A stretch of DNA of 59,051 nt, counting the filler. It is 3 parts of 3 records of this genome, joined end to end, with 100 filler letters (N's around TTAATTAATTAA, not from the genome) between each part and the next. Parts side by side here need not be neighbours in the genome. Positions count along the whole stretch, not along the records: positions 24,885 to 43,125 come from DRR723986_6736; 2 more parts are not named here. One strand, 5' to 3'. Below are positions 24,785-43,225 of the stretch, piece after piece (within the stretch, counting starts at the first letter, position 1; the number at the start of each line of letters is the position of its first letter). The position numbers and the translations under genes were made by a program. The notes below the pieces were generated by a model. It had not been told where the DNA came from and ran no database searches. It saw only the letters and a program-made list of their open reading frames with translations.

Positions 24785-24884
24785 NNNNNNNNNNNNNNNN
24801 NNNNNNNNNNNNNNNNNNNNNNNNNNNNTTAATTAATTAANNNNNNNNNNNNNNNNNNNNNNNNNNNNNNNNNNNNNNNNNNNN
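24785..24884. other. Artificial contig-joining linker
   Basis: N runs flanking TTAATTAATTAA (stops in all frames). Confidence 0.97.
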
Positions 24885-25474
24885 CCAGACAAATGCGCGC
24901 GCTGGTCGCCTGGACCTACAACAACGTCGCGCGTTTCAATGGCAACCCCGAGAGGCTGTTTGTTGCTGGTCATTCCGCAGGCGCACATCTGACCGCGATG
25001 TGCGCCCTGACCGATTGGAAGCGCGACTACAACCTGGATAACAGAGTGATCAAAGGCATCATTCCGATCAGCGGCCTTTTTGATCTGGAGCCTCTCCAAT
25101 ACACATTTCTGCAAGACGATTTGCGCATTACGGACCCGCTCATCCAGTCTCATTCACCGCTTCGCATCCTTCGGTCTGTTCCGGTTCCGATGTTGATATC
25201 CTACGGCATGGACGAGCCGGATGAATTCCTGCGGCACTCAACGGAGTTCCTCAAAGGTTGGCAGGAGGCCGGCAATGCGGCGCGGCTTTACCCCCAAGAA
25301 GGCCGTAACCACTTCAATGCCATCACCGATCTGGCAGATCCCAAAAGTGACATGGTGACCACGATCTTGCGGTTCATGAACCATAGACCATCAAGACGTT
25401 TGTCCCCCGGCGTGCCGGGATCGTCGGCAAGGCCCACGTGGGAAATGGCAAAACAGGGAAGACTGGCGCGATGA
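24885..25474 (+). CDS. Alpha/beta hydrolase (arylformamidase/HSL-like), 5'-truncated
   Basis: Nucleophile motif GHSAGAHL, ISGLFDL, catalytic His in NHF. Confidence 0.8.
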
Positions 25475-26190
25475 GCAAAACACTTCTAGGTGTCTCGGAC
25501 CTTCATAAATCCTTTGGTGCAGTCACGATCGCTGACGGTATTTCCTTCGACATCTTCGAAGGCGAAGTTGTCGGCATCATCGGACCAAATGGCGCCGGAA
25601 AAACAACCTTGTTTGGAATGCTAGCTGGCACGGTTGCCGCAGATTCCGGGACCATCACCTTTGGCGGAACGGATATATCCTCAACGCCTACCTATGTCCG
25701 GGCGCAGATGGGCATGGGGCGAACCTATCAGATTCCCCGACCTTTCGGGCACATGACCGTTGCCGAAAACCTCAGAGTGGCATCCATGTTTGCAGGCGGA
25801 CTTGAGCCATCGGAATGCGGTGATTGGGTCAATCAGGTTCTTTCATTCACCGGACTGGCCCCACAAAGCGACATGTTGGCGGGACGGTTATCCCTGCTGG
25901 GCCGCAAACGTCACGAACTCGCCAGAGCACTGGCAACGCGCCCAAGCATCCTTCTGGTTGATGAAGTGGCTGCCGGTTTGACCGACGCCGAAGTTGACGA
26001 GTTCATTGGCCTCATCCGCAAGGTCAGTGCCTCCGGTATCACAGTGGTTTGGATCGAGCATGTCATGAAGACCATGCTCTCGGCGACGGATCGTCTGCTC
26101 GCAATCGCGGGAGGGAAGATCATTGCCTCCGGCAAACCAAAAGATGTCATCGAAACAAGGGAGGTTCGCCGTGTCTACCTCGGTGCGTAA
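25471..26190 (+). CDS. HAAT-family ABC ATP-binding protein (LivG-like)
   Basis: GPNGAGKTT, RTYQIPRPF, LVDEVAAGL, IEH. Confidence 0.9.
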   Translation: MSKTLLGVSDLHKSFGAVTIADGISFDIFEGEVVGIIGPNGAGKTTLFGMLAGTVAADSGTITFGGTDISSTPTYVRAQMGMGRTYQIPRPFGHMTVAENLRVASMFAGGLEPSECGDWVNQVLSFTGLAPQSDMLAGRLSLLGRKRHELARALATRPSILLVDEVAAGLTDAEVDEFIGLIRKVSASGITVVWIEHVMKTMLSATDRLLAIAGGKIIASGKPKDVIETREVRRVYLGA

Positions 26191-26971
26191 AGGCAGCCTT
26201 TTCTCGGAGCCTGGCCGGGATGGGAAACAGTCCATCCTGGGTGTTAATGGTCTCTCGGCTTATTATGGTGAGTTGCAGGCCTTGTTTGATGTCAGTTTTG
26301 ACGTAAATCCGGGCGAAATCCTCGCCATCATTGGTGCAAATGGCGCAGGAAAATCAACGCTACTTCGGTCCATCACCGGAATGATGAACCGCGGCAAGAC
26401 TGCGCATATCGAAGGCTCGATTTCATTTGCAGGCCGTCGCCTTGATCGTCTGACAACAGAGCAGATTGTCGATGCGGGAACCACGATGGTTCCGGAGGGG
26501 CGGATGCTTTTCCCCCGCATGAGCGTATCGGAAAATCTGCTGGTGGGGGCCCATCTTCCCAAGGCGCGTGTTCATGCCAAGCGCAAACTGGACGAGATGT
26601 ACACGTTTTTCCCGCGTCTTGCTGAACGTCGCAATCAAATCGTCAGCCAAATGTCGGGCGGCGAACAGCAAATGGTAGCGATTGCACGTGCATTGATGTC
26701 TGAACCGACTCTTGTGCTGTTTGACGAACTGTCGCTTGGTCTCGCCCCTATCATTGTTGAGGACATTTACGAGAAGGTCACCCAGATCAATCAGAGCGGC
26801 GTGACCTGCGTTGTCGTTGAACAGGACATGCACCGGGCACTGGCCGTGTCCGACCATGTTCTGGTGATGCTTGAAGGGCGCATCGTGCTGGAGGGAGCGC
26901 CAGACACATTGTCCAAAGACGACATTACCAATGCGTATTTTGGCTCCCATTCCGCAGGAGGTGATCAATGA
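26183..26971 (+). CDS. HAAT-family ABC ATP-binding protein (LivF-like)
   Basis: GANGAGKST, VPEGR, MSGGEQQM, DELSLGLAP; GTG start inferred. Confidence 0.88.
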   Translation: MRKGSLFSEPGRDGKQSILGVNGLSAYYGELQALFDVSFDVNPGEILAIIGANGAGKSTLLRSITGMMNRGKTAHIEGSISFAGRRLDRLTTEQIVDAGTTMVPEGRMLFPRMSVSENLLVGAHLPKARVHAKRKLDEMYTFFPRLAERRNQIVSQMSGGEQQMVAIARALMSEPTLVLFDELSLGLAPIIVEDIYEKVTQINQSGVTCVVVEQDMHRALAVSDHVLVMLEGRIVLEGAPDTLSKDDITNAYFGSHSAGGDQ

Positions 26972-27891
26972 CGTTCGAGGAAAATCTTTATTGGACCATG
27001 ATCGACATTGCCAATGCGCTGCTGACGGGCACGTTCATCGGCGGGTATTACGCGATGCTCAGTATCGGTCTTGCGCTCTCTTTCGGCGTTATGAAACTTG
27101 TCAATCTCGCACATGGCGATTTTCTGATCGTCGGCGCATATCTTTCCGCAATGATCCTGACGGTGGTGCCGCTCCCGCCGGTTCTCGTTCTCATCGTTGT
27201 GGTGCCAATCATGTTCGGCATTGGCTATGCACTGCAACGTTTCCTGCTCAACCATGTCTCGGTGCAGGCGATGGAGCGGCGGGGCATGTCCGCCAATTTT
27301 GGCCTCATGGCACCGATCCTTGTCACCTTCGGGCTGAGCATCACCATATCGCATCTCTTGCTCGCACTTTTTGCGTCGGATGCGGTTTCGATCAAGAACG
27401 ATCTGGCGTTCTCGGCCATCCGCATTTCTCAGGATCTGAGCATCTCTTTGCTAAGGTTCCTGTTCTTTCTGGTCGCGGTCGCGCTGCTCGTTGCGCTGCA
27501 ACTGTTCCTGAGAAGAACCATCACCGGGCGCGCCATTCGTGCCGCGTCTGACAATCCTACGTTTTCATCTCTGATGGGGATCAATACCGATCATATCTTT
27601 GCGGTGGCCTTGGGGATCTCTCTGGCGATCAGCGGGGTCGCAGGCTTCATGATCGGTATGACGCGCACCTTCCAACCCTTTGATGGGCCTCAGTTCATCC
27701 TGATCGCTTTTGGTGTCGTGATCATTGGCGGCATGAACTCAATCAAAGGCAGTCTTTTCGGTGGGATCATTCTCGGGATCACCCAAGTTTTGGCGGGAAC
27801 CTATTTCGGGCCCTCGGCCCAGCTTGTCGGCGGTTACATGTTGGTTCTTTTTGTTTTGTCATTCTGGCGTGAAGGTCTGTTCTCAAAATGA
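26968..27891 (+). CDS. HAAT-family ABC permease (LivH-like)
   Basis: GLALSFGVMKLVNLAHGDF, GRAIRA. Confidence 0.9.
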   Translation: MTFEENLYWTMIDIANALLTGTFIGGYYAMLSIGLALSFGVMKLVNLAHGDFLIVGAYLSAMILTVVPLPPVLVLIVVVPIMFGIGYALQRFLLNHVSVQAMERRGMSANFGLMAPILVTFGLSITISHLLLALFASDAVSIKNDLAFSAIRISQDLSISLLRFLFFLVAVALLVALQLFLRRTITGRAIRAASDNPTFSSLMGINTDHIFAVALGISLAISGVAGFMIGMTRTFQPFDGPQFILIAFGVVIIGGMNSIKGSLFGGIILGITQVLAGTYFGPSAQLVGGYMLVLFVLSFWREGLFSK

Positions 27892-29912
27892 TCGGAAATC
27901 TATTCAACAAGATGGCAGAGCGCCAAACCGCCGCGATACTGTTGATCGCAGCCCTTGTTATCCTGCTGGTCTTTCCATGGGCGGCTGGTGAAGGGGGGCG
28001 GTACTACACCTCACTGCTGATGACCGTGTTCCTTTTTGCAACTTTGGGGCATGCGTGGAACCTGCTCGCGGGCTTTTGCGGTCTTCTGTCGTTTGGCATC
28101 CAGGTCTACATCGGACTGGCCGGTTTCACCGTTGCGATCCTGAACTATTACTTCAACGTTCCCGTTTGGGTTGGTGTGATCTGCGGTGCCTGTGTTGCAG
28201 GGCTTTTTGCCTGGCTGTTGGCAGCGCCAATTTCCGATCAATCGGGAAAACGCCAGATGATCATCGGCTTGGTCATCGCTGTGCTTTTGTGGGCGGCCTA
28301 CGAGGTATGGATCGTTTTTGTCCCAACCGCAGATATTTTTGGCGGCGCGTATATTCGCCGGGTGATTATCCTGCTCACCATTTTTCTTGGCATGTTGCCA
28401 CTGCTCAAATTGCAAGGCGCGTATTTTGCCGTTGCCACCTGGCTGATTGCAGCGGCTGTGACCTCTGTCTTCAACGAATGGCGGCTTACAGGGGCAGGCG
28501 GCGGCATGAATATTGTCTCCGAGACCACGAGTATGGAACGCTACTACGTTGGGTTGCTGATCCTCATCGCCTCCACGGCTGTTGTCTGGAAGTTGTTGAA
28601 CAGCCGGTACGGAGACGCCCTAACGGCCGTGCGGGATGACGAGGAAGCCGCCACGGCCATCGGCATCGACGTGCGGCGCATCAAGTCAATGGTCTTTGTG
28701 ATTTCGGCGCCCATCGCAGCGCTTGCAGCTGGCCTCTTCTATGTGGACAGTGTGACGATCACGCCCAACGACGCATTTCATATCCGCTGGTCGGCCTATG
28801 TTGTGTTCATCGTTGTTGCTGGAGGGATGGGAACGCTCAGTGGACCGATTGTCGGTGCAATTGCCTTCGTCATCATCCAGCGGTTCCTGTCCGGCCTTTG
28901 GGGCGGCGGCGAACTGACACTTGGTCTGGCCTCGGTCCTGTTGATCCTGCTGTTGCCGCGCGGAATAATGGGACTTGTTCAAGAGTTGCGGACAAGGGCC
29001 AAGACGGCACCACCTGTGCAGCGCAAAGCATCGCTGTTTTCATCGCCAGCCAAGCTTGCCAAGGCGGACACATCACATATTCCCGAGGGGCCAGGTTTGG
29101 TTGCGGCATTGATGGTGCCGGGCAGTCCGCTGCCGATGCTCAACGGGAGCAATCCGGCATGGAAAGATCTTGTCGCGGGATATGAGGCGGCACGCGAGGC
29201 GCTTGAGGCCGCAAGGCCGGATGTGATCCTCGTTTATTCTGGTCAATGGATGGCTGTTCTCGATCAGCTCTGGCAAACCAGCCCGCATCTGCGTGGCACC
29301 CATGTTGATGAGAACTGGCATGAATACGGTGCCCTGAACTATGATTTCAGGACAGACCGGGAGGGCACGCTGGCCTGTATTGCCGGGTGTGACACCGTCG
29401 GGGTGCGGGCCAAGCCAGTGGATTTTGATCACTTCCCGATCGACAGTGGCACTATCGTTGCAAACGGGTTCCTGAACGAACGCCTGCGCGCGCCGCTGAT
29501 CATCGCTTCGGCCAACATCTATCACGATTACGAAACCACCCGGAAACTGGGCGAAATGGCAGCCCGCGAAGCGATCAAACTTGGTCGCCGGGTTGCGATC
29601 ATCGGCGTTGGCGGCCTGTCAGGTTCGATTTTCCGTCAGGAAATTGATCCGCAAAACGACCGTATCAAATCTCCAGAGGATGACGCGTTGAACCGCAAGA
29701 TGCTGGAGCTGATGGAGGCGGGAGACCGAAACGGGATTGATCAATTCCGCCTGGAATTCATCGCCAAGGCCCGGGCTGACAACAATTTCAAACACTTCGC
29801 ATGGTTGCAGGGGGCAATGGGCTCTGAATGGAGCGGTGCAAAGGTTCTTGCCTACGGTCCCGCCTGGGGCGCCGGCTCAGCTGTCGTTCAGTTTGATCTG
29901 AACAGAAAATAA
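27888..29912 (+). CDS. Fusion: LivM-like ABC permease (to about 28990) + 2-aminophenol 1,6-dioxygenase alpha-subunit-like (LigB-fold) domain (about 29094-29912)
   Basis: Permease motifs AWNLLAGFCG, AVRDDEEAA, GGMGT..GP; then VPGSPLP, RPDVILVYS.QW.AVLDQ.W, HVDENW, FPIDSGT, GVGGLSGS.FR, FKH..W..GA resembling AmnA/CnbCa as recalled. Confidence 0.85.
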   Translation: MIGNLFNKMAERQTAAILLIAALVILLVFPWAAGEGGRYYTSLLMTVFLFATLGHAWNLLAGFCGLLSFGIQVYIGLAGFTVAILNYYFNVPVWVGVICGACVAGLFAWLLAAPISDQSGKRQMIIGLVIAVLLWAAYEVWIVFVPTADIFGGAYIRRVIILLTIFLGMLPLLKLQGAYFAVATWLIAAAVTSVFNEWRLTGAGGGMNIVSETTSMERYYVGLLILIASTAVVWKLLNSRYGDALTAVRDDEEAATAIGIDVRRIKSMVFVISAPIAALAAGLFYVDSVTITPNDAFHIRWSAYVVFIVVAGGMGTLSGPIVGAIAFVIIQRFLSGLWGGGELTLGLASVLLILLLPRGIMGLVQELRTRAKTAPPVQRKASLFSSPAKLAKADTSHIPEGPGLVAALMVPGSPLPMLNGSNPAWKDLVAGYEAAREALEAARPDVILVYSGQWMAVLDQLWQTSPHLRGTHVDENWHEYGALNYDFRTDREGTLACIAGCDTVGVRAKPVDFDHFPIDSGTIVANGFLNERLRAPLIIASANIYHDYETTRKLGEMAAREAIKLGRRVAIIGVGGLSGSIFRQEIDPQNDRIKSPEDDALNRKMLELMEAGDRNGIDQFRLEFIAKARADNNFKHFAWLQGAMGSEWSGAKVLAYGPAWGAGSAVVQFDLNRK

Positions 29913-29929
29913 TTGCCCAGGAGAGGTCC

Positions 29930-31405
29930 ATGACGCGCAGTTCAAACAAGATGATCCAAAACTTTATCGCCGGTCAGTATGTGCCCGGGTCTGAAGGAAA
30001 GACCTTTGACGATATTTCCCCTGTCGATGGTTCGCTGGTCGCAACCGTTTGTGAGGCCAGCCGGACAGATGTGGACAGGGCGGTGGAGGCGGCCAGAAAG
30101 GCGCTTGAAGGGCCGTGGGGAAATATGCCGGCGAGCCAACGCAGCCGACTGCTACATGCCGTTGCGGATCGCATAGAGGCGCGGTTCGAGGAATTCCTCG
30201 CCGCGGAAATAGCGGATACCGGCAAACCTCACGCGCTTGCCAGCACGGTGGATATTCCGCGCGGTGCGGCCAATTTTCGCATCTTCGCGGATCTGATCCG
30301 CAACGAGCCCGAACGGGTTTTCCAGCAGGAAACAGAAGACGGTCTCGGGGCGCTGAACTATACTGTGCGCAATCCCAAGGGTGTCATTGCTGTAATCAGT
30401 CCATGGAATCTGCCGATGCTGCTGATGACCTGGAAGGTCGCGCCCGCGTTGGCATGTGGCAATACGATCGTTGCAAAACCTTCTGAAGACACGCCCGCCA
30501 CTGCGACACTCCTTGGCGAGGTGATGAACGAGGTGGGCATTCCGCCGGGGGTGTTCAATGTTGTCCATGGTTTCGGCCCCGGGTCGGCTGGAGAATTTCT
30601 CACGAACCATCCCGATGTCGATGCCATCACCTTTACGGGCGAGACCGGAACAGGTGAAATCATCGCGAAGGCCGCCGCAAATGGCGTAAGGGATATTTCT
30701 TCCGAACTGGGTGGCAAGAACGCATCGCTGGTTTTTGCCGATTGTGATCTGGACAAGGCGGTTGCGGGCACGGTCCGTTCATCCTTTACAAATTGCGGAC
30801 AGGTCTGCCTGTGTACAGAGCGGGTCTATGTCGAACGCCCGATATTTGATGAATTTGTGCGCCGGGTCGCCGAGGAGACCCGCAAACTCCGCATCGGAAC
30901 ACCGACCGATGAGGGCACCAACATTGGCCCGCTGGTGAGCCGCAAGCATCGGGACAAGGTTCTTCAGTATTTCGAGGCCGCGCGTTCAGAGGGGGCCAAG
31001 ATCCACGCCGGAGGCGGCATCCCGGATATGGGTCAGGAGCTTGGGCAAGGGGCCTGGATCGAACCGACGATTTGGACCGGTCTGCCGGAAACCAGCACTG
31101 TGATCCGCGAAGAGATCTTTGGTCCGTGCTGCCATATCCAGCCCTTCGACAGCGAAGATGATGCGATCCGGATGGCAAATGACACGCCTTATGGTCTGGC
31201 AAGTGTCATCTGGACAGAAAACCTGTCACGCGCCCATCGCGTCGCGCCGCAGCTGGAGACTGGCATCACATGGGTCAATACATGGAACCTGCGTGATCTG
31301 CGGACACCTTTTGGCGGCGCAAAGGCGTCTGGGACCGGTCGCGAAGGTGGGGCTTACTCGCTCGAATTTTACACTGAAATCAAGAACATCTGCATCAAGA
31401 TTTAG
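29930..31405 (+). CDS. 2-amino/2-hydroxymuconic semialdehyde dehydrogenase (AmnC/DmpC/XylG family)
   Basis: DIPRGAANF, PWNLP, FTGETGTG, ELGGK, GQVCLC, EEIFGP. Confidence 0.92.
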   Translation: MTRSSNKMIQNFIAGQYVPGSEGKTFDDISPVDGSLVATVCEASRTDVDRAVEAARKALEGPWGNMPASQRSRLLHAVADRIEARFEEFLAAEIADTGKPHALASTVDIPRGAANFRIFADLIRNEPERVFQQETEDGLGALNYTVRNPKGVIAVISPWNLPMLLMTWKVAPALACGNTIVAKPSEDTPATATLLGEVMNEVGIPPGVFNVVHGFGPGSAGEFLTNHPDVDAITFTGETGTGEIIAKAAANGVRDISSELGGKNASLVFADCDLDKAVAGTVRSSFTNCGQVCLCTERVYVERPIFDEFVRRVAEETRKLRIGTPTDEGTNIGPLVSRKHRDKVLQYFEAARSEGAKIHAGGGIPDMGQELGQGAWIEPTIWTGLPETSTVIREEIFGPCCHIQPFDSEDDAIRMANDTPYGLASVIWTENLSRAHRVAPQLETGITWVNTWNLRDLRTPFGGAKASGTGREGGAYSLEFYTEIKNICIKI

Positions 31406-31414
31406 GAGGCCATC

Positions 31415-32212
31415 GTGGCTGAAAACAAGGATAAGATTGAAAGTGCGGCAGCCGCACTTTTTGAGGCGCACAGATCCGGCAAACCTTGCCCGCCGGTCCG
31501 CGATTTGATCGGAACCGGTAACATCGATGCGGCCTATGCGGTTCAACAGCTCAACACGGCGCGCTGGCAAGAAGAAGGGCGCGTTCTCTGTGGCCGAAAA
31601 ATTGGTCTTACATCGAAGGTTGTGCAAAACCAACTCGGTGTTGATCAACCCGACTTTGGCCAATTGTTTGCGGATATGGATGTGCCTGACGGGGAAGAGA
31701 TCCCTGTCGGGAAGGTGCTTCAGCCCAAGGTGGAGGCAGAGATTGCATTCCGCATCGGCCAGGACCTCGACTGCGAGAACCTGACATCGGCCGATATCCT
31801 GAGCAGCATCGAATATGCTGTTGCAGCGATTGAAGTTGTCGGAAGCCGGGTGGAAAATTGGGATATCTCCATCCTCGACACAATCGCAGACAACGCGTCA
31901 TCTGGTCTTTTTGTGATCGGCCAGGAGCCCAAAGCGGTTGCTGACTTTGACCTGCGCCTGTGTGGCATGGTGATGGAGTGTCGTGGTGAGCCGGTTTCAG
32001 CCGGTGCTGGCGCTGCCTGTCTCGGCAGCCCGGTGAACGCAACGCTCTGGCTTGCCCAAACGATGGCGCGCGTCGGCGCACCCCTGCGCAAGGGCGATCT
32101 GGTGCTTTCGGGCGCGTTGGGGCCGATGGTTCCGGCCAATCCGGGCGATGTCTTCGAAGCCAGGATCAATGGGCTTGGCTCCGTCCGGGCCGCCTTTGCA
32201 GCGGAGGCGTGA
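31415..32212 (+). CDS. mhpD: 2-oxopent-4-enoate hydratase
   Basis: [38 protein letters not shown]. Confidence 0.9.
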
Positions 32213-32213
32213 C

Positions 32214-33155
32214 ATGAGCAAGATCAAATGCGCAATCATCGGATCCGGCAATATCGGCACCGATCTCATGATCAAGATCATGCGGACGTCCGATCTCTTG
32301 GAAATGGCCGCCATGGTTGGAATTGACCCCCACAGTGACGGGCTTGCCCGCGCTGAACGGCTTGATGTTGCCACCACACACAAAGGGCTGGAAGGGTTAC
32401 GCGCCTTGCCTGAGTATGCCGACATCAGGATCGTCTTTGATGCGACCTCTGCCGGGGCGCACCTGCGCCACTCCGAAGCCCTTGTCGGAGATGGTAAGCA
32501 GGTGATTGATCTGACCCCCGCAGCCATCGGGCCTTACACGATCCCACCCGTTAATATCGATGATCATCTCGATGCACCAAACGTCAATATGGTCACCTGC
32601 GGCGGTCAGGCGACAATTCCGATGGTGGCGGCAGTCAACCGGATCAGCCCGGTACACTACGGCGAAATTGTCGCTTCGATTTCCTCAAAATCTGCGGGCC
32701 CAGGCACACGCGCCAATATCGACGAATTCACCGAGACAACTGCGGAAGCCATTGAAAAGGTTGGCGGTGCGCGCAGGGGCAAAGCGATCATTGTCCTCAA
32801 TCCAGCGGAGCCGCCCCTGATCATGCGCGATACCGTCTTTTGCCTTTGTGACGATGCAGATCAGGACGCGATCCGCCAGTCTGTAAAGGACATGGTAGAA
32901 ACCGTGCAAAGTTATGTGCCGGGTTACCGTTTGAAGCAGGATGTGCAGTTCGAGCGCATTGGGGGGAACGATCCCCTGCGCATTGCTGAGATGGACGAAG
33001 GCTTCACCGGTCTCAAAGTCTCGATTTTTTTGGAGGTCGAAGGGGCCGCCCATTATCTGCCGGCCTATGCCGGGAACCTCGACATCATGACATCGGCAGC
33101 AATGAAAACAGCGGAGCGGCTGGCCGTGAAACGCAATTGGGTGGAGGCCGCCTGA
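32214..33155 (+). CDS. mhpF: Acetaldehyde dehydrogenase (acylating)
   Basis: [32 protein letters not shown]. Confidence 0.95.
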
Positions 33156-33156
33156 G

Positions 33157-34182
33157 ATGACAAAGCTTTATATTCAGGATGTGACTTTGCGGGACGGCAT
33201 GCATGCCGTGCGCCATCAATACGATCTGGGCCATGTCCGCGCGATTGCGCAAGCCCTTGATGAAGCAGGTGTGGATGCCATCGAAGTTGCGCATGGTGAC
33301 GGGCTGACAGGGTCCACATTCAACTACGGATTTGGGGCACACACCGACGCGGCATGGATTTCGGAGGCCGCGAAGGTTTGCAAGAACGCCCGCCTTACCA
33401 CGCTACTGTTGCCGGGAATTGGGACCATTGAAGATCTTAAAAGGGCGCGCGACCTTGGTGTTCAATCTGTCCGTATCGCGACCCATTCAACTGAGGCCGA
33501 CGTCTCCGCACAGCACATTTCTGCTGCTAAGGAAATGGGCCTTGATGTGTCAGGCTTCTTGATGATGGCACATATGACGCCGCCCGAGACCCTCGCTGCC
33601 GAGGCTGCCAAGATGGAAAGCTACGGCGCGGATTGTATCTACGTCACGGATTCCGGCGGAGGGCTCACGATGACAGGCGTCAGTGAACGCTTTGGCGCTT
33701 ACACATCCGCGCTGGACCCCAAAACCGAACGTGGCGCACACATGCATGAAAATCTGTCACTGGGTGTCGCGAATTCCGTCGTTGCCGTTGAAAACGGTGC
33801 AACGCGGGTTGATGCCTCCCTTGCCGGGATGGGGGCAGGCGCGGGTAATTGCCCGCTTGAAGCATTCATCGCCGTCGCGAACCTCTATGGTTGGGACCAC
33901 AATTGCGACTTGTTCAAGCTGCAAGACGCCGCAGAAGATTTGGTGCGTCCGCTGCAAGATCGCCCGGTCCGGGTCGACCGTGAGACAATGACACTTGGAT
34001 ATGCAGGCGTCTATTCGAGCTTTCTGCGGCATGCGGAACGCGCCTGTGAAACCTATGGCATCGATACCCGCGAAATTCTGGTGGAGCTTGGGCGCCGCCG
34101 AATGGTTGGCGGGCAGGAAGACATGATCATCGATGTGGCGCTTGATCTCGTCAAAGCAAAAGAAATGAAGGCAGCACAATGA
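33157..34182 (+). CDS. mhpE: 4-hydroxy-2-oxovalerate aldolase
   Basis: [31 protein letters not shown]. Confidence 0.95.
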
Positions 34183-34943
34183 CACTTGAAACCATTGCTC
34201 AGCAACTTGATGAAGCGGCCGCGACCGGCCAGGCGATACCGCAATTCTCCGAAACGCAGGCGATGTCCGTTGACGAAGCCTATGCAGTTCAAAGCTTGTC
34301 CATGGCATTGCGGCGTGCCCGAGGGGAGCGTCCGATCGGCTTTAAAATGGGGCTGACCAGCAAGGCTAAAATGAAGCAGGTCGGTGTTGAAGAGGTAATC
34401 TGGGGCCATCTGACCGACGCCATGCAAGTCGAGGATGGCGGTGAGTTTTCGATCTCAGGGGGGGTGCACCCACGCGCAGAGCCTGAGATTGCGTTTGTGA
34501 TGGGACAAACGCTCTCCGGGGATGTCAGCGCTGCCGAGGCAATGGCTGCCGTTGAATATGTCAGCCCCGCCATCGAGATCATTGACAGCAGATATCGCGA
34601 CTTCAAGTTTGCGCTCAGCGATGTTGTCGCTGACAACACGTCCGCCTCAAAATTTGTTCTTGGCAATCGGTACAGTCCGGATACGGATATTTCGAACCTT
34701 GGCATGATTGTCGAAGTAAACGGCGCAACGCGTGCCGTTGGTTCATCGGCGGCCATCCTCGGCCATCCCGTGCGCTCCCTCATGGCGGCCTCAAAGATGC
34801 TGGCAAAGTGGGGTCACAGCCTGCAACCCGGAGACATTCTTCTGGCCGGAGCGGCGACGGAAGCGATCCCGCTAACCGCTGATCAATCCGTCAGAGTCGT
34901 GGTTCAAAATCTGGGTCAGGTCTCTTTCCACACAAAATCCTAA
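34179..34943 (+). CDS. dmpH: 4-oxalocrotonate decarboxylase (DmpH/AmnE)
   Basis: [34 protein letters not shown]. Confidence 0.88.
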
Positions 34944-34970
34944 TAACAACGATTTCACGGAGAATACACG

Positions 34971-35525
34971 ATGCCTCGAATTGGTATGAAACTGCCCGAC
35001 GTCACATTTCGTTTGCGGGTGCGCGACGAAAGTGTTGGTGGGGATAATCCCTACACATGGTGTGAAAAGACGACACAGGATTTTTTTGCTGGCAAGCGAT
35101 GCATCTTGTTTTCGTTGCCGGGGGCCTTCACACCCACATGTTCGACTTACCAACTCCCCGGTTTTGAGCGGGCGGCAAAAGAGTTTGCTGCGGAAGGTGT
35201 TCAGGAGATTTATTGCCTGTCCGTCAATGACGCGTTTGTCATGAACAAATGGGCGGCTGATCAGGGGCTCTCTGCGGTCAAAGTCATTCCGGATGGCTCT
35301 GCAGAATTCACCCGAAAAATGGGCATGCTGGTTCAGAAGGACAATTTGGGCTTCGGCATGAGAAGCTGGCGATACGCGGCGCTGGTGGATGACGGCAAAA
35401 TCGTTTCATGGTTTGAGGAACCCGGATTTGAAGACAATTGTAACGATGATCCTTACGGGGAAAGCAGCCCGGAAAATATTCTTAGCCATCTCAAAGAGTC
35501 TAACCCGTTCTCTGCGACAGCCTGA
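34971..35525 (+). CDS. Peroxiredoxin (Prx5/redoxin family)
   Basis: PGAFTPTCS, SVNDAFVM, GMRSWRY. Confidence 0.92.
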   Translation: MPRIGMKLPDVTFRLRVRDESVGGDNPYTWCEKTTQDFFAGKRCILFSLPGAFTPTCSTYQLPGFERAAKEFAAEGVQEIYCLSVNDAFVMNKWAADQGLSAVKVIPDGSAEFTRKMGMLVQKDNLGFGMRSWRYAALVDDGKIVSWFEEPGFEDNCNDDPYGESSPENILSHLKESNPFSATA

Positions 35526-36004
35526 CCCAGAAAACTGGGGCGAGAATAGTTCCTGTTCTCTCAAAAACGTAGCAAGAGAGGTGAGGCGATTATTGTCAGC
35601 CCAATCTCTGAATAGAATGACCCTTTGCCAACAGCAAAGGGTCATTTGTTTTGCCTTTGCTTGTCAGATGGCGCCTCTGCGCGGCATTCTTTGACCGCAA
35701 AGCACTTAGATCCACCGTAGCTGCGAAACAATCTCCTGCGGTTGGTGGTGACCGACACCGATCCAATATCCTGTGTTTCGTGCCAATTTGCCCCGACCCT
35801 ATCTGTGGGGGTGGGTTTCAATTGTGGCCCATAGTTTTCTGATCTTATTGGGCAAAAAGTGCAGCAACCATGATTTTGGCGTAACCTCAAGGCCCTGTTG
35901 CGCCGCAAAGGATCATTTTACGTTGCGAAACAGGCAAGATGAGTGATTGTAACTGACCCGCTTGACTGAATACCTTGGTCCAAATGGTCTTTGGGAGGAG
36001 CGCC

Positions 36005-36880
36005 GTGGATTTTCTACAACTCATTATCAGTGGGCTTGCCAACGGCTGCGTCTACGGATTGATCGCTTTGGGGTTTGTGTTGATTTACAAAGCCACCGAA
36101 GCTGTGAACTTTGCCCAAGGCGATTTCATGATGCTGGGTGCATTTGTCTGCATCGGCTTTACCAACCATGAATACATGGGTCTTAACTTTTGGCTTGCTG
36201 TGCCGCTCTCTATCCTTGTGATGGGGGCGCTTGGGTATCTCTTCAATTGGGGCATTTTGCGCCACATGTTTGGCCAATCCCAGACGTCGATTGTCATTCT
36301 GACCATCGCGATGGGGTTTATCATCCGGTTTATTGCCGGCGCTGTCTGGAGCCATGAGCCGACCTCGCTGGAAACGCCCTTTGCCGGTCAGGACATCCGC
36401 TCAGGTGGGCTGGTGCTTGGCATTGACGAAGTGCTGATCGTGGTGGTGACGGCCTTCCTGACTTTGGTGTTCTTTTTGTTCTTCTCCCGCACTCGGATCG
36501 GCCTGGCGATGCAGGCGGCGTCCCAAAACCAATTGGCGGCCTATTACATGGGCATCCCCGTGCGGCGGATTCATAGTCTGGTTTGGGGGCTGTCCGGTAT
36601 GGTTGCTGCGGTTGCAGGGATTTTGTTTGCGTCCAAAGGTGCAATTGATCCCTCAACGGGATTGCTGGGCATCAAGGCATTTGCCGCAGCCGCGATCGGC
36701 GGATTTGGGTCCTTGCCGGGTGCGCTGCTGGGGGGATTGATCATCGGTTTGGTTGAACCTCTGGCCTCGCGCTATGGTCCGCCGGGGGTCAGCCAGATTG
36801 CGCCTTACGCGATTTTGCTGCTCATCCTGATTTTCCGCCCCGGCGGCATCTTCTCCCAGACGCAACGAAAGAAGGTCTAA
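36005..36880 (+). CDS. HAAT ABC permease (LivH-like)
   Basis: GTG after GGAGGAG; VNFAQGDF, GGFGSLPGA. Confidence 0.9.
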   Translation: MDFLQLIISGLANGCVYGLIALGFVLIYKATEAVNFAQGDFMMLGAFVCIGFTNHEYMGLNFWLAVPLSILVMGALGYLFNWGILRHMFGQSQTSIVILTIAMGFIIRFIAGAVWSHEPTSLETPFAGQDIRSGGLVLGIDEVLIVVVTAFLTLVFFLFFSRTRIGLAMQAASQNQLAAYYMGIPVRRIHSLVWGLSGMVAAVAGILFASKGAIDPSTGLLGIKAFAAAAIGGFGSLPGALLGGLIIGLVEPLASRYGPPGVSQIAPYAILLLILIFRPGGIFSQTQRKKV

Positions 36881-36881
36881 G

Positions 36882-37988
36882 ATGCGCTTTGTTTTCAAAA
36901 CCTCTTACGATGCGGATATTTCGCTGTTCAAACACCGGGCGCAGGCCGTGTGGTATGGATTGCTCTTGCTATTGGTGCTTGCTACGCCGCTTTATTTTGT
37001 GGTGATCGGGGATGCCTATTTGCTGGGCGAGATTACCGGCATTCTCATTCTGGCGATTGCGGGCATGGGTCTTATGCTGCTGACGGGGCACACTGGATTG
37101 CCCAGTCTGGGGCATGCCACGTTTATGGCGTTTGGCTGTTATCTTAACATCAACCTGCTGGGCGCGGGTGTGCCCTGGCTTATCGCCTTTCCGCTGTCCG
37201 GGCTGATTGCTGGCGGGTTGGGGACTATGATTGCGCTTCCAGTGTTACGTCTGCACGGCGTCTATCTGGCATTGGCGACCTTGGCGATGTCGATACTGAC
37301 CAGCGATTTTGTCGTGATTGCAGAGCCTTGGACGGGGGGTATCGCAGGTGCAGCGGTGCCGGATATCAATATCCTTGGAATGGAAATCAACCGATACTCA
37401 ACCCCGTACAAATTCTACTATCTGGTCCTATTCGTAGCGATCCTGATTGTCTGGTTTTATCGCAACCTTTTGCGGACCCCGACAGGGCGCAGCTTTACCG
37501 CCGTGCGCGACAGTGAAATCTCAGCAAGGGCGATGGGGATCAACCTGACCAGAACCAAGGCGATGTCATTCTTTCTGTCTGCGACCGCTGCTGGACTTGC
37601 GGGTGCGCTCTTTGGTCATTCGGCGGGCTATGTAACAAACGAGACCTTCGATCTGGTCATGTCGATCACCTTGCTCTTGATGATTGTGATCGGCGGTTTG
37701 GGCTTCATCCATGGCGCATTCTTTGGTGCGATTGTGGTCGGTATCATCCCTGTTGCCATCGCAAATGGGCGCACGTTTCTGTCCACTACGTTTGATGTGA
37801 ACATCAACGTGCCCGGACTGGAAAGCGCGCTATTCGCCTTTATCCTGATCTGTTTCATTCTGTTTGAACCGATGGGGCTTTATGGTCGATGGCTCAAGAT
37901 CCGCACCTATTTTGAACTGTTCCCCTTCTATCGCAAGGACATGTTCAAACGTCAGAAATCCTATCTCAAGACGGATCGTGTCCAATGA
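36882..37988 (+). CDS. HAAT ABC permease (LivM-like)
   Basis: GHTGLPSLGH, AVRDSEISA. Confidence 0.9.
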   Translation: MRFVFKTSYDADISLFKHRAQAVWYGLLLLLVLATPLYFVVIGDAYLLGEITGILILAIAGMGLMLLTGHTGLPSLGHATFMAFGCYLNINLLGAGVPWLIAFPLSGLIAGGLGTMIALPVLRLHGVYLALATLAMSILTSDFVVIAEPWTGGIAGAAVPDINILGMEINRYSTPYKFYYLVLFVAILIVWFYRNLLRTPTGRSFTAVRDSEISARAMGINLTRTKAMSFFLSATAAGLAGALFGHSAGYVTNETFDLVMSITLLLMIVIGGLGFIHGAFFGAIVVGIIPVAIANGRTFLSTTFDVNINVPGLESALFAFILICFILFEPMGLYGRWLKIRTYFELFPFYRKDMFKRQKSYLKTDRVQ

Positions 37989-38776
37989 GCTTGCTTGAAA
38001 TTGATAATGTCACGCTCCGGTTTGGTGGGCTTGTGGCGGTCGACAACGTCTCCTTGCGGGTCAACGAGGGCGAGGTTTTTGCCCTTGTCGGCCCCAACGG
38101 TGCCGGGAAATCCACGATCTTTAACCTGATCTCGCGGTTCTATGATCCCGCCGAAGGGCGTATCCGCTTTGATGGTAAGGATCTGCTCAAACATACTGCG
38201 GATCAGGTGCCCAGCTTTGGCATCGCGCGGACCTTTCAGAACATCGAATTGTTTGAACAAGCCACGGTCTTGCAGAACCTGCTGGTCGGGCGGCACCGTC
38301 ATCGCCAAACCGGGATGCTGTCCAACATCGTGTTCTCGCCCAAAGCCTACCGCGAGGAGTTGCGCCACCGCGAGGCGGTCGAGGAAGTGATCGAATTTTT
38401 GAACCTGCAACCCTACCGTGACAAGATGATCGGCGGTCTGCCCTACGGCGTGCGCAAAGTGGTGGAGCTTGGCCGCGCCTTGGCGTCAGAGCCGAAACTG
38501 CTGCTGTTGGACGAGCCTGCTTCGGGGCTGTCGGTGGAAGAAACCCAAGACATGGCGTTTTGGATTGAGGACATCCAGACCCAGATGGGGATCTCGGTGA
38601 TGATGGTCGAGCATGACATGGGCTTGGTCTCCGCCGTGTCTGGCCGCGTCATGGCCTTGTCGGATGGCAAGGAGCTGGCAACAGGCACCGCCGCCGAAGT
38701 TCAGTCGCACCCGGCTGTTATTGAGGCCTATCTCGGCACTGGCGAGATTTCCAAGACAGGGACATCGCGCGCATGA
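37985..38776 (+). CDS. HAAT ABC ATP-binding protein (LivG-like)
   Basis: GPNGAGKST, ARTFQN, LDEPASGL, VIEAYLG. Confidence 0.92.
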   Translation: MSLLEIDNVTLRFGGLVAVDNVSLRVNEGEVFALVGPNGAGKSTIFNLISRFYDPAEGRIRFDGKDLLKHTADQVPSFGIARTFQNIELFEQATVLQNLLVGRHRHRQTGMLSNIVFSPKAYREELRHREAVEEVIEFLNLQPYRDKMIGGLPYGVRKVVELGRALASEPKLLLLDEPASGLSVEETQDMAFWIEDIQTQMGISVMMVEHDMGLVSAVSGRVMALSDGKELATGTAAEVQSHPAVIEAYLGTGEISKTGTSRA

Positions 38777-39567
38777 ACACCCAGAACACCAAACCCGACG
38801 TCGTTTTGCAGATCGACAACCTCGAAAGCTATTACGGGCCAATCATGGCCATCCGCGGCGTCAGTCTGAAAGTCCATGAGGGCCAAATCGTCACCGTGCT
38901 AGGGGCCAATGGCGCGGGTAAAACTACATTGCTCAAGACGATCTCGGGGGTGATGGACCCCGAGAAAGGCACGGTCACAATGGAGGGGACTGACATCCAA
39001 TCCATGGAGCCGGATGCCATCGTGCGGCGCGGCATCGTTCATGTGCCGGAAGGGCGCGAGATTTTCCCGCTGATGACGGTTGCCGAAAACATCGCGATGG
39101 GCGCCTATACCCGCAAAGACCGCAGCGCGATCGCGGCGGATGAGGAAATGGTCTATTCCTACTTTCCGATCTTGAAAGACCGCCGAAATCAACGCGCAGG
39201 CACCCTGTCGGGCGGCCAACAACAGATGCTGGCCATCGGGCGTGGACTGATGTCGCACCCCAAGCTGATGCTGCTGGATGAGCCGAGCCTTGGCCTCTCT
39301 CCTTTGCTGACGCAGGAGATATTTGAGATCATTGTGAGGCTCAACAAAGAGCAAAAGGTCACGATGATGCTGGTCGAGCAGAACGCCAAGGTGGCACTTG
39401 ATGCGGCTGACTATGGGTATGTGATGGAGTTGGGGCGCATCGTCATGAACGATTCCGCTGACGTGCTGGCAGCCTCCAAAGACATTCAGGAATTCTATCT
39501 TGGCGTCAGTCAGGATGAGAACCAGCGCGGGCAACGCCGCTGGAAACAACGCAAGACGTGGCGATAG
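38773..39567 (+). CDS. HAAT ABC ATP-binding protein (LivF-like)
   Basis: GANGAGKTT, LSGGQQQM, DEPSLGL. Confidence 0.92.
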   Translation: MNTQNTKPDVVLQIDNLESYYGPIMAIRGVSLKVHEGQIVTVLGANGAGKTTLLKTISGVMDPEKGTVTMEGTDIQSMEPDAIVRRGIVHVPEGREIFPLMTVAENIAMGAYTRKDRSAIAADEEMVYSYFPILKDRRNQRAGTLSGGQQQMLAIGRGLMSHPKLMLLDEPSLGLSPLLTQEIFEIIVRLNKEQKVTMMLVEQNAKVALDAADYGYVMELGRIVMNDSADVLAASKDIQEFYLGVSQDENQRGQRRWKQRKTWR

Positions 39568-39576
39568 GGATTGAGC

Positions 39577-41457
39577 ATGACAGACACACTCCCCCCTCAG
39601 GAAAAAGTACACGGGCTGATGATCAATTCGGACCTGTCGCAGGGCCCGTTCTACATCGATGGCATGGATACAACGCCCAAACTGCTCCGCTTGCGGTGCC
39701 AGACCTTGGGCAACCGGACCGCGCACCGCGAAAAGACATTCGGGATCTGGCGATCCCATTCGTGGAACGATTATTTCACCCGCGCCAAACATCTTGGCCT
39801 TGGATTGCTGTCCTTGGGGTTGCAGCGCGGCGAAGTTGTTTCGATCCTGTCCGAGGACAGCAAGGAATGGATGTACACCGATATGGGTGTGCAATGCGTC
39901 GGCGGCATTTGTTCTGGCGTTTACACCACCGATTCTGCCTCCCAGCTGGAGTATCTCGTCAACAATTCCGACAGCCGGTTTCTGTTTGTCGAAAATGATG
40001 AGCAGTTGGACAAGTTTTTGCAGGTTCGAGACAAAATGCCGGATCTGGCCAAGGTCATTGTGATGGACCGGGAGGGCCTCCACGGGTTCACTGATCCACA
40101 GATCATCTTTCTCGATGAGCTATATGACTTGGGCGCGGCCTATGATGCGGCCAATCCGCAGGCGTTTGATACGGCAATTGACGCAACCAAACCCGAAGAC
40201 ACCGCCATTTTGGTCTATACGTCCGGCACCACAGGCAAGCCCAAAGGCGCGATGATCAGCCACGGCAATCTGATGTATTCCGTGGCGGCAGGCCTGCGCG
40301 ACGCGCCCACCTTTGATACCGATGACCAGCTGTGTTTTTTGCCGCTGTGCCACATTCTGGAACGGGTGTTTTCGGTCAATGCGCCCATCGCGGCGGGCTC
40401 GACCACCAATTTTGCCGAAAGCCCGGAAACGATCTTTGACAACCTGCAAGAGGTCAGCCCACAAACCTTCGTGGCTGTGCCCCGACTGTGGGAAAAGATC
40501 TATAGTCAGGTCGCTATCCGCATTGGCGATGCGACCGGCCTGCAAAAGTGGGCCTATGCGCAGGCTTTGAAGGCGGGCGGCGCGCGCGCGGCCTGTCTGG
40601 CCGAAGGCAAATCACTGCCATTTGGTGCAATTCTCGCCTATCGTTTCTGGGACTTGGCGCTGCTGCAAAACCTGCGGCGGATGATCGGGATGGACCGGCT
40701 GCGGCGCGGCGGCTCTGGGGCCGCTCCCATCTCGCCAGAATTGTTGCAGTGGTATCATGCCATCGGCGTGCCGGTGCTGGAAGGCTACGGCATGACCGAA
40801 AGCTCTGGTGTGATTTGCATCAACTGCGATGAAACCAACAAGATCGGCACCGTTGGCAGGGCATTGCCGGGCGCCGAGATCCGCATTTCGGATGAGGGTG
40901 AAATCCAGTATAAGGCTGGCAATGTGTTTCAGGGCTACTGGAAAAACCCGGAAAAGACGGCCGAGACCTTTACGGAGGATGGCTGGCTGCGGACCGGTGA
41001 TGTGGGGATGCTGGACAATCAAGGGTTCCTCAAAATCACCGGCCGCCTGAAAGACATTATCATCACGGCAGGGGGCAAGAATATCACGCCCGCAGAGATC
41101 GAAAACAAACTCAAGTTTTCGCCCTACATTTCGGACGTTGTGGTGATCGGGGACAAACGAAAATTCCTGACCTGTCTGGTGATGATTGATCAGGAGAACG
41201 TCGAGAAATTCGCGCAAGACCGGCGCGTACCGTTCTCAAACTATGCCTCGCTTTGTGCTGCGCCAGAGGTGCAGGATCTGATCCGCGAGACTGTCGAAGA
41301 GGTGAACAAGGATTTCGCGCGTGTCGAGCAGATCAAGGATTTCCGCCTGATCGATGTATTGCTGACCGCAGACGACGATGAACTTACGCCGACCATGAAG
41401 CTCAAACGCAGCTTTGTGGAAACCAAACATGCAGAGCTGATCAGCCAGATGTATTGA
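39577..41457 (+). CDS. AMP-dependent long-chain acyl-CoA synthetase-like protein
   Basis: YTSGTTGKPKG, EGYGMTE, WLRTGD, ELTPTMKLKR. Confidence 0.92.
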   Translation: MTDTLPPQEKVHGLMINSDLSQGPFYIDGMDTTPKLLRLRCQTLGNRTAHREKTFGIWRSHSWNDYFTRAKHLGLGLLSLGLQRGEVVSILSEDSKEWMYTDMGVQCVGGICSGVYTTDSASQLEYLVNNSDSRFLFVENDEQLDKFLQVRDKMPDLAKVIVMDREGLHGFTDPQIIFLDELYDLGAAYDAANPQAFDTAIDATKPEDTAILVYTSGTTGKPKGAMISHGNLMYSVAAGLRDAPTFDTDDQLCFLPLCHILERVFSVNAPIAAGSTTNFAESPETIFDNLQEVSPQTFVAVPRLWEKIYSQVAIRIGDATGLQKWAYAQALKAGGARAACLAEGKSLPFGAILAYRFWDLALLQNLRRMIGMDRLRRGGSGAAPISPELLQWYHAIGVPVLEGYGMTESSGVICINCDETNKIGTVGRALPGAEIRISDEGEIQYKAGNVFQGYWKNPEKTAETFTEDGWLRTGDVGMLDNQGFLKITGRLKDIIITAGGKNITPAEIENKLKFSPYISDVVVIGDKRKFLTCLVMIDQENVEKFAQDRRVPFSNYASLCAAPEVQDLIRETVEEVNKDFARVEQIKDFRLIDVLLTADDDELTPTMKLKRSFVETKHAELISQMY

Positions 41458-41505
41458 CATAACGCTGACAAGCTTTTCACATAAAAACATAAAGGGAGAA
41501 GACGA

Positions 41506-42672: not shown

Positions 42673-42703
42673 GGCATTTCGCGCCGAACATTCAGTTCAA
42701 TTC

Positions 42704-42739
42704 GGAAGGGACCGGTCACTGTGTTGGCCGGTCCTTTTC
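42704..42739. terminator. Intrinsic terminator
   Basis: GAAGGGACCGGTCA...TGGCCGGTCCTTTT hairpin after the SBP gene. Confidence 0.7.
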
Positions 42740-42800
42740 ACTTGTGGCTTTGGCAGGCCCGTCAGACGTCCAGCCCTTTCAAAGCGGACCAGATAAAAGG

Positions 42801-43125: not shown

Positions 43126-43225
43126 NNNNNNNNNNNNNNNNNNNNNNNNNNNNNNNNNNNNNNNNNNNNTTAATTAATTAANNNNNNNNNNNNNNNNNNN
43201 NNNNNNNNNNNNNNNNNNNNNNNNN
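43126..43225. other. Artificial contig-joining linker
   Basis: N runs flanking TTAATTAATTAA. Confidence 0.97.

Follow-up and report, generated by a model that had tools for sequence, protein, structure and literature searches.

We analyzed a window of 59,051 nucleotides, the whole stretch of DNA considered here, and found that it contains a gene on the plus strand (27888..29912) encoding a LivM-type permease of an ATP-binding cassette (ABC) importer joined in a single frame to a LigB-fold domain of the AmnA/CnbCa type, that is, to a relative of the alpha subunit of 2-aminophenol dioxygenase. We refer to this fused alpha-type domain as alpha'. On the sequence, model and gene-context evidence presented below, we favor, with a probability of roughly 45%, an interpretation in which alpha' would act as a flexibly tethered cytoplasmic adaptor holding the first catabolic enzymes, a hydrolase and the ring-cleavage enzyme, at the exit of the importer.

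The fusion is a 674-residue open reading frame that opens with ATG and is translated without internal stops. Its start codon shares bases with the TGA stop of the LivH-type gene upstream, in the sequence ATGA, and its own TAA (29910-29912) is followed by GGAGAG and by the ATG of the downstream AmnC-like gene at 29930. Residues 1-365 (27888..28982, plus strand) form the LivM-type transmembrane domain, which matches the Pfam family BPD_transp_2 at residues 41-356 over profile positions 3-269 of 269 (E-value 1.6e-26; 93.5 bits against a cut-off of 26.8) and is all helical in the AlphaFold2 model. Residues 366-402 (28983..29093, plus strand) constitute a disordered linker of about 37 residues that is basic and contains proline, with seven lysines or arginines within residues 365-409 and a predicted local distance difference test (pLDDT) score below 50 at residues 373-396. 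The remaining 272 residues (403-674; 29094..29912 with the stop codon, plus strand) form alpha', which matches the solved alpha subunit 3vsg_A and, at residues 422-655, the Pfam family LigB (9.5e-14; 51.5 bits against a cut-off of 26.3). The AlphaFold2 model of the whole chain, which rests on 27 homologues, has a mean pLDDT of 78.5. Because the linker is long and modeled with pLDDT below 50, and because the predicted template-modeling score of the whole chain is just 0.52 despite two confident domains, the linker looks like a flexible tether and not like a rigid fusion. Its sequence and length also differ among the 27 fused homologues. These matches bear out the first-pass annotation of this DNA, which had described an uninterrupted 674-residue frame made up of a complete LivM-like permease, a short basic linker with proline and an AmnA/CnbCa-like alpha domain of about 270 residues.

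An explanation to be weighed at the outset is that the fusion is an artefact of assembly or sequencing, or that the fused domain is itself the catalytic dioxygenase. The latter is naively suggested by tblastn searches, which returned no second or catalytic LigB gene in the window and no AmnB on the contig that carries the fusion; this absence is accounted for by the contig boundary at 24885, taken together with the gene order of the related locus L004 of Phaeobacter sp. 11ANDIMAR09. As regards the former, Logan contigs assembled from runs X1, X2 and X4 cover positions 28600-29500 in one piece, and a contig from run X8 covers 28850-29313, in all cases with no gaps. Whereas X1 and X2 may themselves be the source of the window, X4 and X8 come from other, independent studies. 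The only substitution in any of these contigs across the junction is a T>C change at 29453 in run X4, and none carries a stop or frameshift in the linker, so that contigs from four studies bridge the junction. Furthermore, the close homologues are not split: the proteins P0003, P0004 and P0005, whose alpha parts are 100%, 89% and 86% identical to that of the window, and the homologue in the Phaeobacter locus, which is the closest named relative (84% identity), are all fused. Gap-free contigs from four studies and 74 fused related loci thus rule out an assembly artefact, and with the substitutions at the catalytic positions described next they make this explanation as a whole extremely improbable. 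We also considered an internal start that would yield free alpha', with GAGGGG at 29085-29090 lying 6 bases before an in-frame TTG at 29097. This arrangement is probably due to chance, and we discount it as a general trait of the fusion, as the signal is present in only two of 49 loci and absent from the Phaeobacter locus, the closest relative.

Comparisons with solved structures identify alpha' as an alpha-type protein. Residues 396-674 match the alpha subunits 3vsg_A (CnbCa; 2e-82), 8ihg_B (AmnA; 1.6e-71) and 7txy_A (3.1e-48), and the beta subunits 8ihg_A and 3vsg_B at 5.5e-22 and 6.4e-22, respectively. In Foldseek, the alpha' model superimposes on 3vsg_A with a target TM-score (template-modeling score) of 0.96 and a root-mean-square deviation of 1.3 Å over 269 columns, against TM-scores of 0.82-0.84 for beta chains. 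The motifs VPGSPLP, YSGQW and GGLSGSIF of alpha' stand where beta subunits have APHPPH, HSPHW and LSHxHF, so that glycine, glutamine and glycine occupy beta-subunit histidine positions, with the same replacements seen in solved alpha subunits. Catalytic class III extradiol dioxygenases possess a His-His-Glu iron site, whose ligands in CnbCb we take to be numbered His13, His62 and Glu251, and a catalytic histidine; alpha' does not possess this set. To quantify subunit type, we aligned 61 free alphas with 74 fused domains and 54 betas, and took as alpha-specific the 32 columns where alpha and beta subunits each reach a conservation of 90% or more but for different residues. At 27 of these columns the alpha' of the window has the residue typical of alpha subunits, and at none that of beta subunits. 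Similarly, conservation of 90% or more among the free alphas defines 91 columns, of which 64 of the 74 fused domains retain 68, and no column conserved to that degree in the fused domains departs from the free-alpha consensus. By these measures alpha' is classified as an alpha-type, non-catalytic module, in agreement with the earlier description of its relatives as the non-catalytic partners of the iron-bearing subunit.

The permease part is assigned by family matches to the LivM/UrtC superfamily, at scores that fall far below the NCBIfam equivalog thresholds for LivM (NF008450; 83.2 against 366 bits) and UrtC (TIGR03408; 82.9 against 296.2 bits). For the transmembrane part, sequence searches gave no solved relative at E-values up to 0.01, and Foldseek returned a weak likeness to importer subunits of the BtuC/HI1471/PsaC type (3e-3 to 3e-2), on which we do not rely. 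The expected importer partners are present: LivG-, LivF- and LivH-type genes lie directly upstream in the window, and a Peripla_BP_6 protein is encoded in the Phaeobacter locus (3.6e-32) and across the related loci. In the AlphaFold2 model, four helices follow a conserved charged loop at residues 238-267. Given these four helices, the richness of the linker in lysine and arginine and the need of the partner enzymes for cytoplasmic cofactors, we tentatively place alpha' in the cytoplasm.

To delineate the distribution of the fusion, we scanned one genome per species, which returned 79 related loci. Of these, 74 encode the permease part and alpha' in one frame without a stop; they comprise 39 loci from Alphaproteobacteria, 24 from Betaproteobacteria, one from Chromatiales (Gammaproteobacteria) and 10 with no recorded class. 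The five exceptions are L068 and L076, where the contig ends within the gene, L072, where it starts within the gene, L077, which encodes an unfused LivM of 403 residues with no amn genes nearby, and L078, whose type is unsettled. None of these loci was found to retain the LivM orthologue in an amn cluster without the domain. A search of a set of 5.8 billion proteins, scored on the alpha part alone, returned 229 matching proteins of 370-1180 amino acids. Of the 120 proteins listed, 119 combine PF02653 with PF02900, confirming the occurrence of BPD_transp_2 with LigB in other genomes, and 38 of those also match alpha/beta-hydrolase families. One protein of 626 amino acids (P0132) carries the LigB and hydrolase families without the permease family, and may be a truncated gene call.

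Among sampled genomes, AmnB proved rare. It was detected in three of 401 genomes of Burkholderiales, all three with the fusion and one of them the genome at the center of the sample, and in eight of 401 genomes of Alphaproteobacteria, two of which were already among the known loci. Of the six new alphaproteobacterial genomes, three carry the full fusion 5-6 kb from AmnB, two a free alpha only, and one is cut at a contig end, so that the fusion is present in five of the eight newly found AmnB-bearing species genomes from Alpha- and Betaproteobacteria. In the genome of Xenophilus sp. L33 (G003), a second LigB match lies inside a 674-residue frame (contig C90:98646-99377), and a further LigB gene is found 5 kb away (104114-104869). 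This genome may hold two copies of the system, with the other cluster on contig C155. The architecture is already present in databases, where its names are generic ("ABC transporter permease subunit", "hypothetical protein", "extradiol ring-cleavage dioxygenase" and, at JGI, "permease subunit/aromatic ring-opening dioxygenase"). Full-text literature searches retrieved no publication describing a permease-AmnA fusion and, as far as such searches go, the first-pass annotation was right to treat this combination of two known systems, ABC importers and the AmnAB dioxygenase, as undescribed.

The related loci indicate which genes probably lie beyond the contig boundary. In relatives, the cluster runs RidA-AmnB-AmnA-substrate-binding protein-hydrolase-LivG-LivF-LivH-LivM::alpha'-AmnC, followed by the lower meta-cleavage genes. 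The Phaeobacter locus encodes, upstream of the gene set present in the window, two RidA proteins, LigB proteins of 339 and 270 residues, the Peripla_BP_6 protein (L004:5329-6573) and a full hydrolase of 329 residues. The 339-residue LigB protein (L004:3450-4469) matches CnbCb (3vsg_B) at 1.1e-150 and contains the His/His/Glu motifs, and residues H14, H17, H63, H196, H198 and E252 are invariant in 20 AmnB proteins of such clusters; the 270-residue protein matches CnbCa at 3.3e-97. Of the fused loci, 61 extend 6 kb or more upstream, and 59 of these encode both AmnB and a free AmnA there. Since these loci encode a complete pair, alpha' is a third LigB-fold module added to an entire AmnBA enzyme, and not its only alpha subunit. 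The C-terminal tails of the cluster AmnB proteins vary and end in lineage-specific motifs (SLVD in many Betaproteobacteria, GxGP(S/A)(I/V)GA in Phaeobacter, Mesorhizobium and Devosia, and GREAYAGAMR in a sponge-associated group), and alignments to solved CnbCb and AmnB stop about 10 residues short of the C-termini. The tails could be docking peptides.

The hydrolase is closely associated with the fusion. Across the 74 fused loci it is encoded as a separate gene just upstream of the ATPase genes in 37, it is fused in frame after alpha' in 22, and it was not seen in 15, of which three (L035, L059 and L079) have ample flanks. The resulting LivM-alpha'-hydrolase triple fusions, of about 1040 residues, occur mostly in uncultured marine and sponge-associated Alphaproteobacteria; they include L011:9914-13039, confirmed with Pfam, as well as L008, L009, L010 and 18 more. 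A second linker of about 115 residues separates alpha' from the hydrolase and evolves rapidly, with a ratio of nonsynonymous to synonymous substitution rates (dN/dS) of 0.32-0.49. By gene context and gene fusion, the hydrolase is assigned to the system, in a Rosetta-stone link between importer, alpha' and hydrolase. The full hydrolase of the Phaeobacter locus (L004:6595-7584, 329 residues) matches in the PDB a lipase (9n8r, 2.9e-34), an uncharacterized esterase (2pbl, 5.8e-25) and kynurenine formamidase (4e11, 1.5e-17). These matches suggest that the importer may take up an aromatic amine in N-formylated or N-acylated form, or else an ester.

To examine the evolution of the fused domain, we inferred phylogenies of fused and free alphas with FastTree (152 rows) and IQ-TREE (53 rows). 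In neither tree do the fused and the free alpha from the same locus pair as sisters; fused domains and free alphas each cluster by lineage, in parallel with one another. This topology indicates that the duplication is old, and on its account we reject the possibility that the two copies of a locus were recently duplicated or exchanged sequence by gene conversion. A single origin of the fusion is possible, the deep branches of the tree being poorly resolved. Between the window and the Phaeobacter locus, which share 89% amino-acid identity in the membrane part, synonymous sites are saturated in both domains, and we thus compared dN alone, which rises from 0.079 in the membrane part through 0.114 in alpha' to 0.531 in the linker. 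In the trio formed by L008, L011 and L033, the dN/dS of alpha' is 0.17-0.19. From these rates, alpha' is judged to be under purifying selection.

In the mechanism that we propose, the importer would take up a polar, probably N-acylated or esterified, compound of the aminophenol type, and the hydrolase would free the aminophenol at the inner face of the membrane. The tethered alpha' would hold the first catabolic enzymes at the importer exit, so that little free, auto-oxidizable aminophenol would build up. Alpha' might pair with AmnB like an ordinary alpha, yielding a mixed (alpha'-beta)(beta-alpha) enzyme, and in one lineage it would also carry the hydrolase covalently. In the ARO enzyme of Actinobacteria, according to the available text of PMC10470539, neither subunit is soluble if expressed alone, and two alpha/beta heterodimers join through their betas. 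As the dimers are described there as joining in this manner, the replacement of one alpha by a tethered alpha' is geometrically conceivable.

Several observations weigh against this proposal, mainly in the part that concerns AmnB. A free AmnA lies beside AmnB in all 59 loci in which AmnB was seen, and alpha' would thus have to compete for AmnB. Alpha' is also the less constrained of the two copies. Across 1275 pairs drawn from 51 loci, beta has the highest median identity (0.80), followed by the LivM part (0.59), free alpha (0.58) and alpha' (0.48), with alpha' less conserved than free alpha in 1211 of the 1275 pairs and than the LivM part in 1257. Furthermore, ten of the 74 fused domains (L028, L038, L046, L048, L055, L060, L062, L065, L066 and L071) retain only eight of the 32 alpha-specific residues, while their free alpha, beta and LivM parts are ordinary. 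These divergent domains are still in frame; they have lost the motifs YSTQW, HVDENW, FPIDxGT, NNLYH and MGFKH, and have kept the core motifs GRRVA..GGLSGS, DDxxNR and YGA.xGAGAAV.

Two loci, L008 and L011 (genomes G006 and G007), bear directly on the need for AmnB. DNA comparison with the 90%-identical L033 (L011:8742-9801 against L033:558-1617 and 9788 onward) revealed that the triple fusion stands alone in them, about 8.2 kb with AmnC, RidA, AmnB, AmnA, the substrate-binding protein and LivGFH having been lost. The new upstream flank is in part common to L008 and L011, so that the deletion probably took place in an ancestor of the two. In L011 the triple fusion now lies beside a gene for a Rieske ring-hydroxylating oxygenase (L011:13051-14223). 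AmnB was not found in the G006 and G007 assemblies, whose completeness is a caveat, and the G007 assembly contains no other LigB-family gene. Nevertheless, the dN/dS values between L008 and L011 (membrane part, 0.126; alpha', 0.188; hydrolase, 0.19) are much like those obtained against L033, and their alpha' domains are the most alpha-like of all, retaining 86 and 85 of the 91 conserved columns. Unless these two assemblies are incomplete, such rates point to a role for alpha' that does not need AmnB. Purifying selection in assemblies lacking AmnB, the ten divergent domains and evolution faster than that of free alpha all argue against obligate docking of AmnB.

The persistence of a selected, highly alpha-like domain in two assemblies without AmnB would also be explained if alpha' were a ligand-binding domain of regulatory or acceptor function, whose pseudo-active-site pocket binds the imported aminophenol or an intermediate and either gates the transporter, by trans-inhibition, or hands the compound on, with no part for AmnB. 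The motifs of free alpha and alpha' (YSTQW, HVDENW, FPIDxGT, NNLYH, GGLSG and MGFKH) align with the active-site motifs of beta (HSPHW, SVDPIFPN, FRVDYGT, SANNSPYY, LSHxHF and AEVKSG), and since conserved alpha motifs occupy these positions the pocket appears to be maintained. Against this, the regulatory domains of ABC importers known to us sit on the ATPase subunits and not on the permease, and the ten divergent domains lost exactly these motifs and yet kept the domain. Binding of a ligand by an alpha subunit is likewise not reported in the available text of PMC10470539. On balance we regard a ligand-binding role, which the first-pass annotation had suggested as an alternative to docking of the catalytic subunit on the importer, as unlikely.

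The hydrolase data can also be read in structural terms alone, with alpha' as a scaffold, a folded spacer that places the hydrolase at the permease or stabilizes the LivHM dimer, and whose descent from AmnA is now irrelevant. The position of the hydrolase, directly after alpha' in 22 of the 74 loci and beside the transporter in 37 more, fits such a role, as do the survival of the LivM-alpha'-hydrolase unit alone after the cluster deletion in L008 and L011, and the ten domains in which alpha-specific residues proved dispensable while core motifs remain. A mere spacer, however, would not need the full alpha-specific signature found in 64 of the 74 domains; the three loci with ample flanks have no hydrolase nearby for alpha' to position; and the length and rapid evolution of the second linker speak against a rigid alpha'-hydrolase unit. 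We therefore hold a purely structural role to be quite unlikely.

Finally, alpha' may have no function of its own. According to the available text of PMC3790839, the canonical order in Burkholderia xenovorans LB400 is amnRJBACDFEHG, and the transporter cassette lies exactly between the amnA and amnC of this amnJBACD... order, as would be expected if a cassette had been inserted there and a duplicated amnA had become joined to the permease gene through loss of a stop codon, the product being tolerated without adding anything specific. The faster evolution of alpha' relative to free alpha and the LivM part and its sequence decay in ten lineages are compatible with such a frozen accident. The frame, however, is free of stops and frameshifts in all 74 complete fused loci, from three proteobacterial classes; dN is more than fourfold lower in alpha' than in the linker; dN/dS is about 0.17-0.19; and no LivM orthologue of an amn cluster was found without the domain. 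These results render a frozen accident improbable.

The tethered-adaptor interpretation admits a broader and more tentative form, in which this pseudo-dioxygenase domain of the alpha type would serve generally as a wiring module that, placed on an importer permease, recruits AmnB and in some lineages carries the deacylating hydrolase, so that import, unmasking and ring cleavage would proceed in one membrane-tethered assembly. Our confidence in this extended form is low. If true, it would represent vectorial catabolism by an ABC importer, the counterpart, without a compartment, of the actinobacterial ARO microcompartment; and, with five of the eight new genomes carrying the fusion, it would be a common natural context of AmnB in the samples searched and not a rarity.

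The genes that flank the fusion are in keeping with an aminophenol catabolic cluster. Three contigs make up the window, with N44-TTAATTAATTAA-N44 spacers between them at 24785-24884 and 43126-43225, and the contig that carries the fusion spans only 24885-43125, starting about 3 kb upstream of the fusion, which lies well inside it. The G+C content is about 70% in the first contig (1-24784) and about 50-60% in the other two, with a drop to about 55% at the first spacer, and the three contigs may come from different organisms of one bin. The genes from the hydrolase to the redoxin gene, described next, are on the plus strand. The first on the fusion contig is the 3' part of an alpha/beta hydrolase (24893..25474) of the hormone-sensitive-lipase/kynurenine-formamidase-like type (Pfam BD-FAE, 2.3e-08; Abhydrolase_3, 5.1e-07), whose 5' end is lost at the contig boundary at 24885 and whose Pfam match begins at profile position 71. 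It is followed by a LivG-type ABC ATPase (25438..26190; ABC_tran, 2e-25; NCBIfam LivG, 1.4e-46, under the equivalog cut-off) and a LivF-type ABC ATPase (26123..26971; ABC_tran, 3.3e-31; NCBIfam LivF, 3.5e-64, also under the cut-off). The listed TTG start of the latter is probably too far upstream, as family matches start near residue 36. The LivH/UrtB-type permease that is the partner of the fused permease (26968..27891; BPD_transp_2, 3.2e-33) completes the upstream set.

Downstream of the fusion lie the genes of the lower pathway. A 2-amino/2-hydroxymuconic semialdehyde dehydrogenase resembling AmnC (29930..31405; TIGR03216, 847.6 bits against a cut-off of 693.25), an acetylating acetaldehyde dehydrogenase resembling AmnH (32052..33155; TIGR03215, 475.6 bits against 282.25) and a 4-hydroxy-2-oxovalerate aldolase resembling AmnG (33157..34182; TIGR03217, 558.4 bits against 286) score above the NCBIfam cut-offs. 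The models for a 2-keto-4-pentenoate hydratase resembling AmnF (31415..32212; NF008461, 5.7e-98, 327.5 bits against 350) and for a 4-oxalocrotonate (2-oxo-3-hexenedioate) decarboxylase-like protein resembling AmnE (34179..34943; TIGR03218, 1e-70, 238 bits against 350.55, with a Pfam FAA_hydrolase match) score below theirs. The true start of the acetaldehyde dehydrogenase is probably near 32217, because family matches begin at residues 55-57 of the listed frame. The last gene of the cluster (34971..35525) encodes a redoxin/peroxiredoxin-like protein (Pfam Redoxin, 3.7e-26; orthologue at L004:17065-17622), which might deal with reactive oxygen arising from aminophenol auto-oxidation. Beyond it, at 35975-42672, lie a second, ordinary Liv-type importer (LivH, an unfused LivM, LivG and LivF), a FadD-like acyl-CoA ligase and a Peripla_BP_6 protein. 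This block has no counterpart in the Phaeobacter locus, where pyruvate carboxylase comes after the redoxin gene.

2-Aminophenols are toxic and oxidize spontaneously, and the avoidance of free intermediates is an open theme in aromatic catabolism, to which a protein microcompartment is one published solution. No other ABC importer is known to us in which a membrane subunit is covalently linked to components of the pathway that degrades the imported compound. A dioxygenase-derived domain placed on the permease, in some cases together with the hydrolase that precedes it, would be a simple alternative to a protein microcompartment. Cultured carriers (Phaeobacter sp. 11ANDIMAR09, Mesorhizobium sp. 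ANAO-SY3R2, Ensifer adhaerens and Xenophilus sp. L33) make the system directly testable, and it offers a handle both on the purpose of the conserved, inactive alpha subunit of AmnAB and on the natural, non-xenobiotic substrate of amn clusters, which the hydrolase and the binding protein suggest to be an N-acylated or formylated aminophenol. Whatever the mechanism, the annotation of these fusion genes is corrected.

Like LivM/UrtC-type permeases, the fused permease has a full BPD_transp_2 domain, a LivH-type partner, two ATPases and, in relatives, a Peripla_BP_6 protein; it differs from them in its enzyme-derived C-terminal domain and in its location inside an aromatic catabolic cluster. Similarly, alpha' shares with AmnA/CnbCa (PDB 3VSG-3VSJ chain A, 8IHG chain B and 7TXY chain A) the fold and family, the loss of the beta histidines and the alpha motifs. 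Whereas those subunits are free, soluble proteins of about 270 residues encoded beside amnB, alpha' is the C-terminal domain (residues 403-674) of a membrane protein, placed behind a disordered linker, and a paralogue of the free AmnA encoded in its own cluster, relative to which it evolves faster.

With the canonical amn clusters of B. xenovorans LB400, Pseudomonas sp. AP-3 and Comamonas CNB-1, the loci described here share the same enzymes in the same relative order (RidA-type AmnJ/AmnD, AmnB, AmnA, AmnC and lower genes). In the relatives analyzed here, the substrate-binding protein, the hydrolase and LivGFHM::alpha' stand between amnA and amnC; for LB400, the available text mentions no such transporter and only an efflux system downstream (PMC3790839). 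The available text of PMC11676683 contains nothing on subunit roles.

A possible functional parallel is the ARO bacterial microcompartment of Actinobacteria, which, as described in the available text of PMC10470539, serves a comparable end by confining a 2-aminophenol dioxygenase whose beta extension is thought to target it, and whose true substrate is, in the view of its authors, an upstream precursor of 2-aminophenol. Confinement there relies on a shell and on an N-terminal peptide on the beta subunit, whereas in the system described here, which has no shell genes, it would be brought about by a covalent alpha-type tether to the importer, in some lineages together with the hydrolase.

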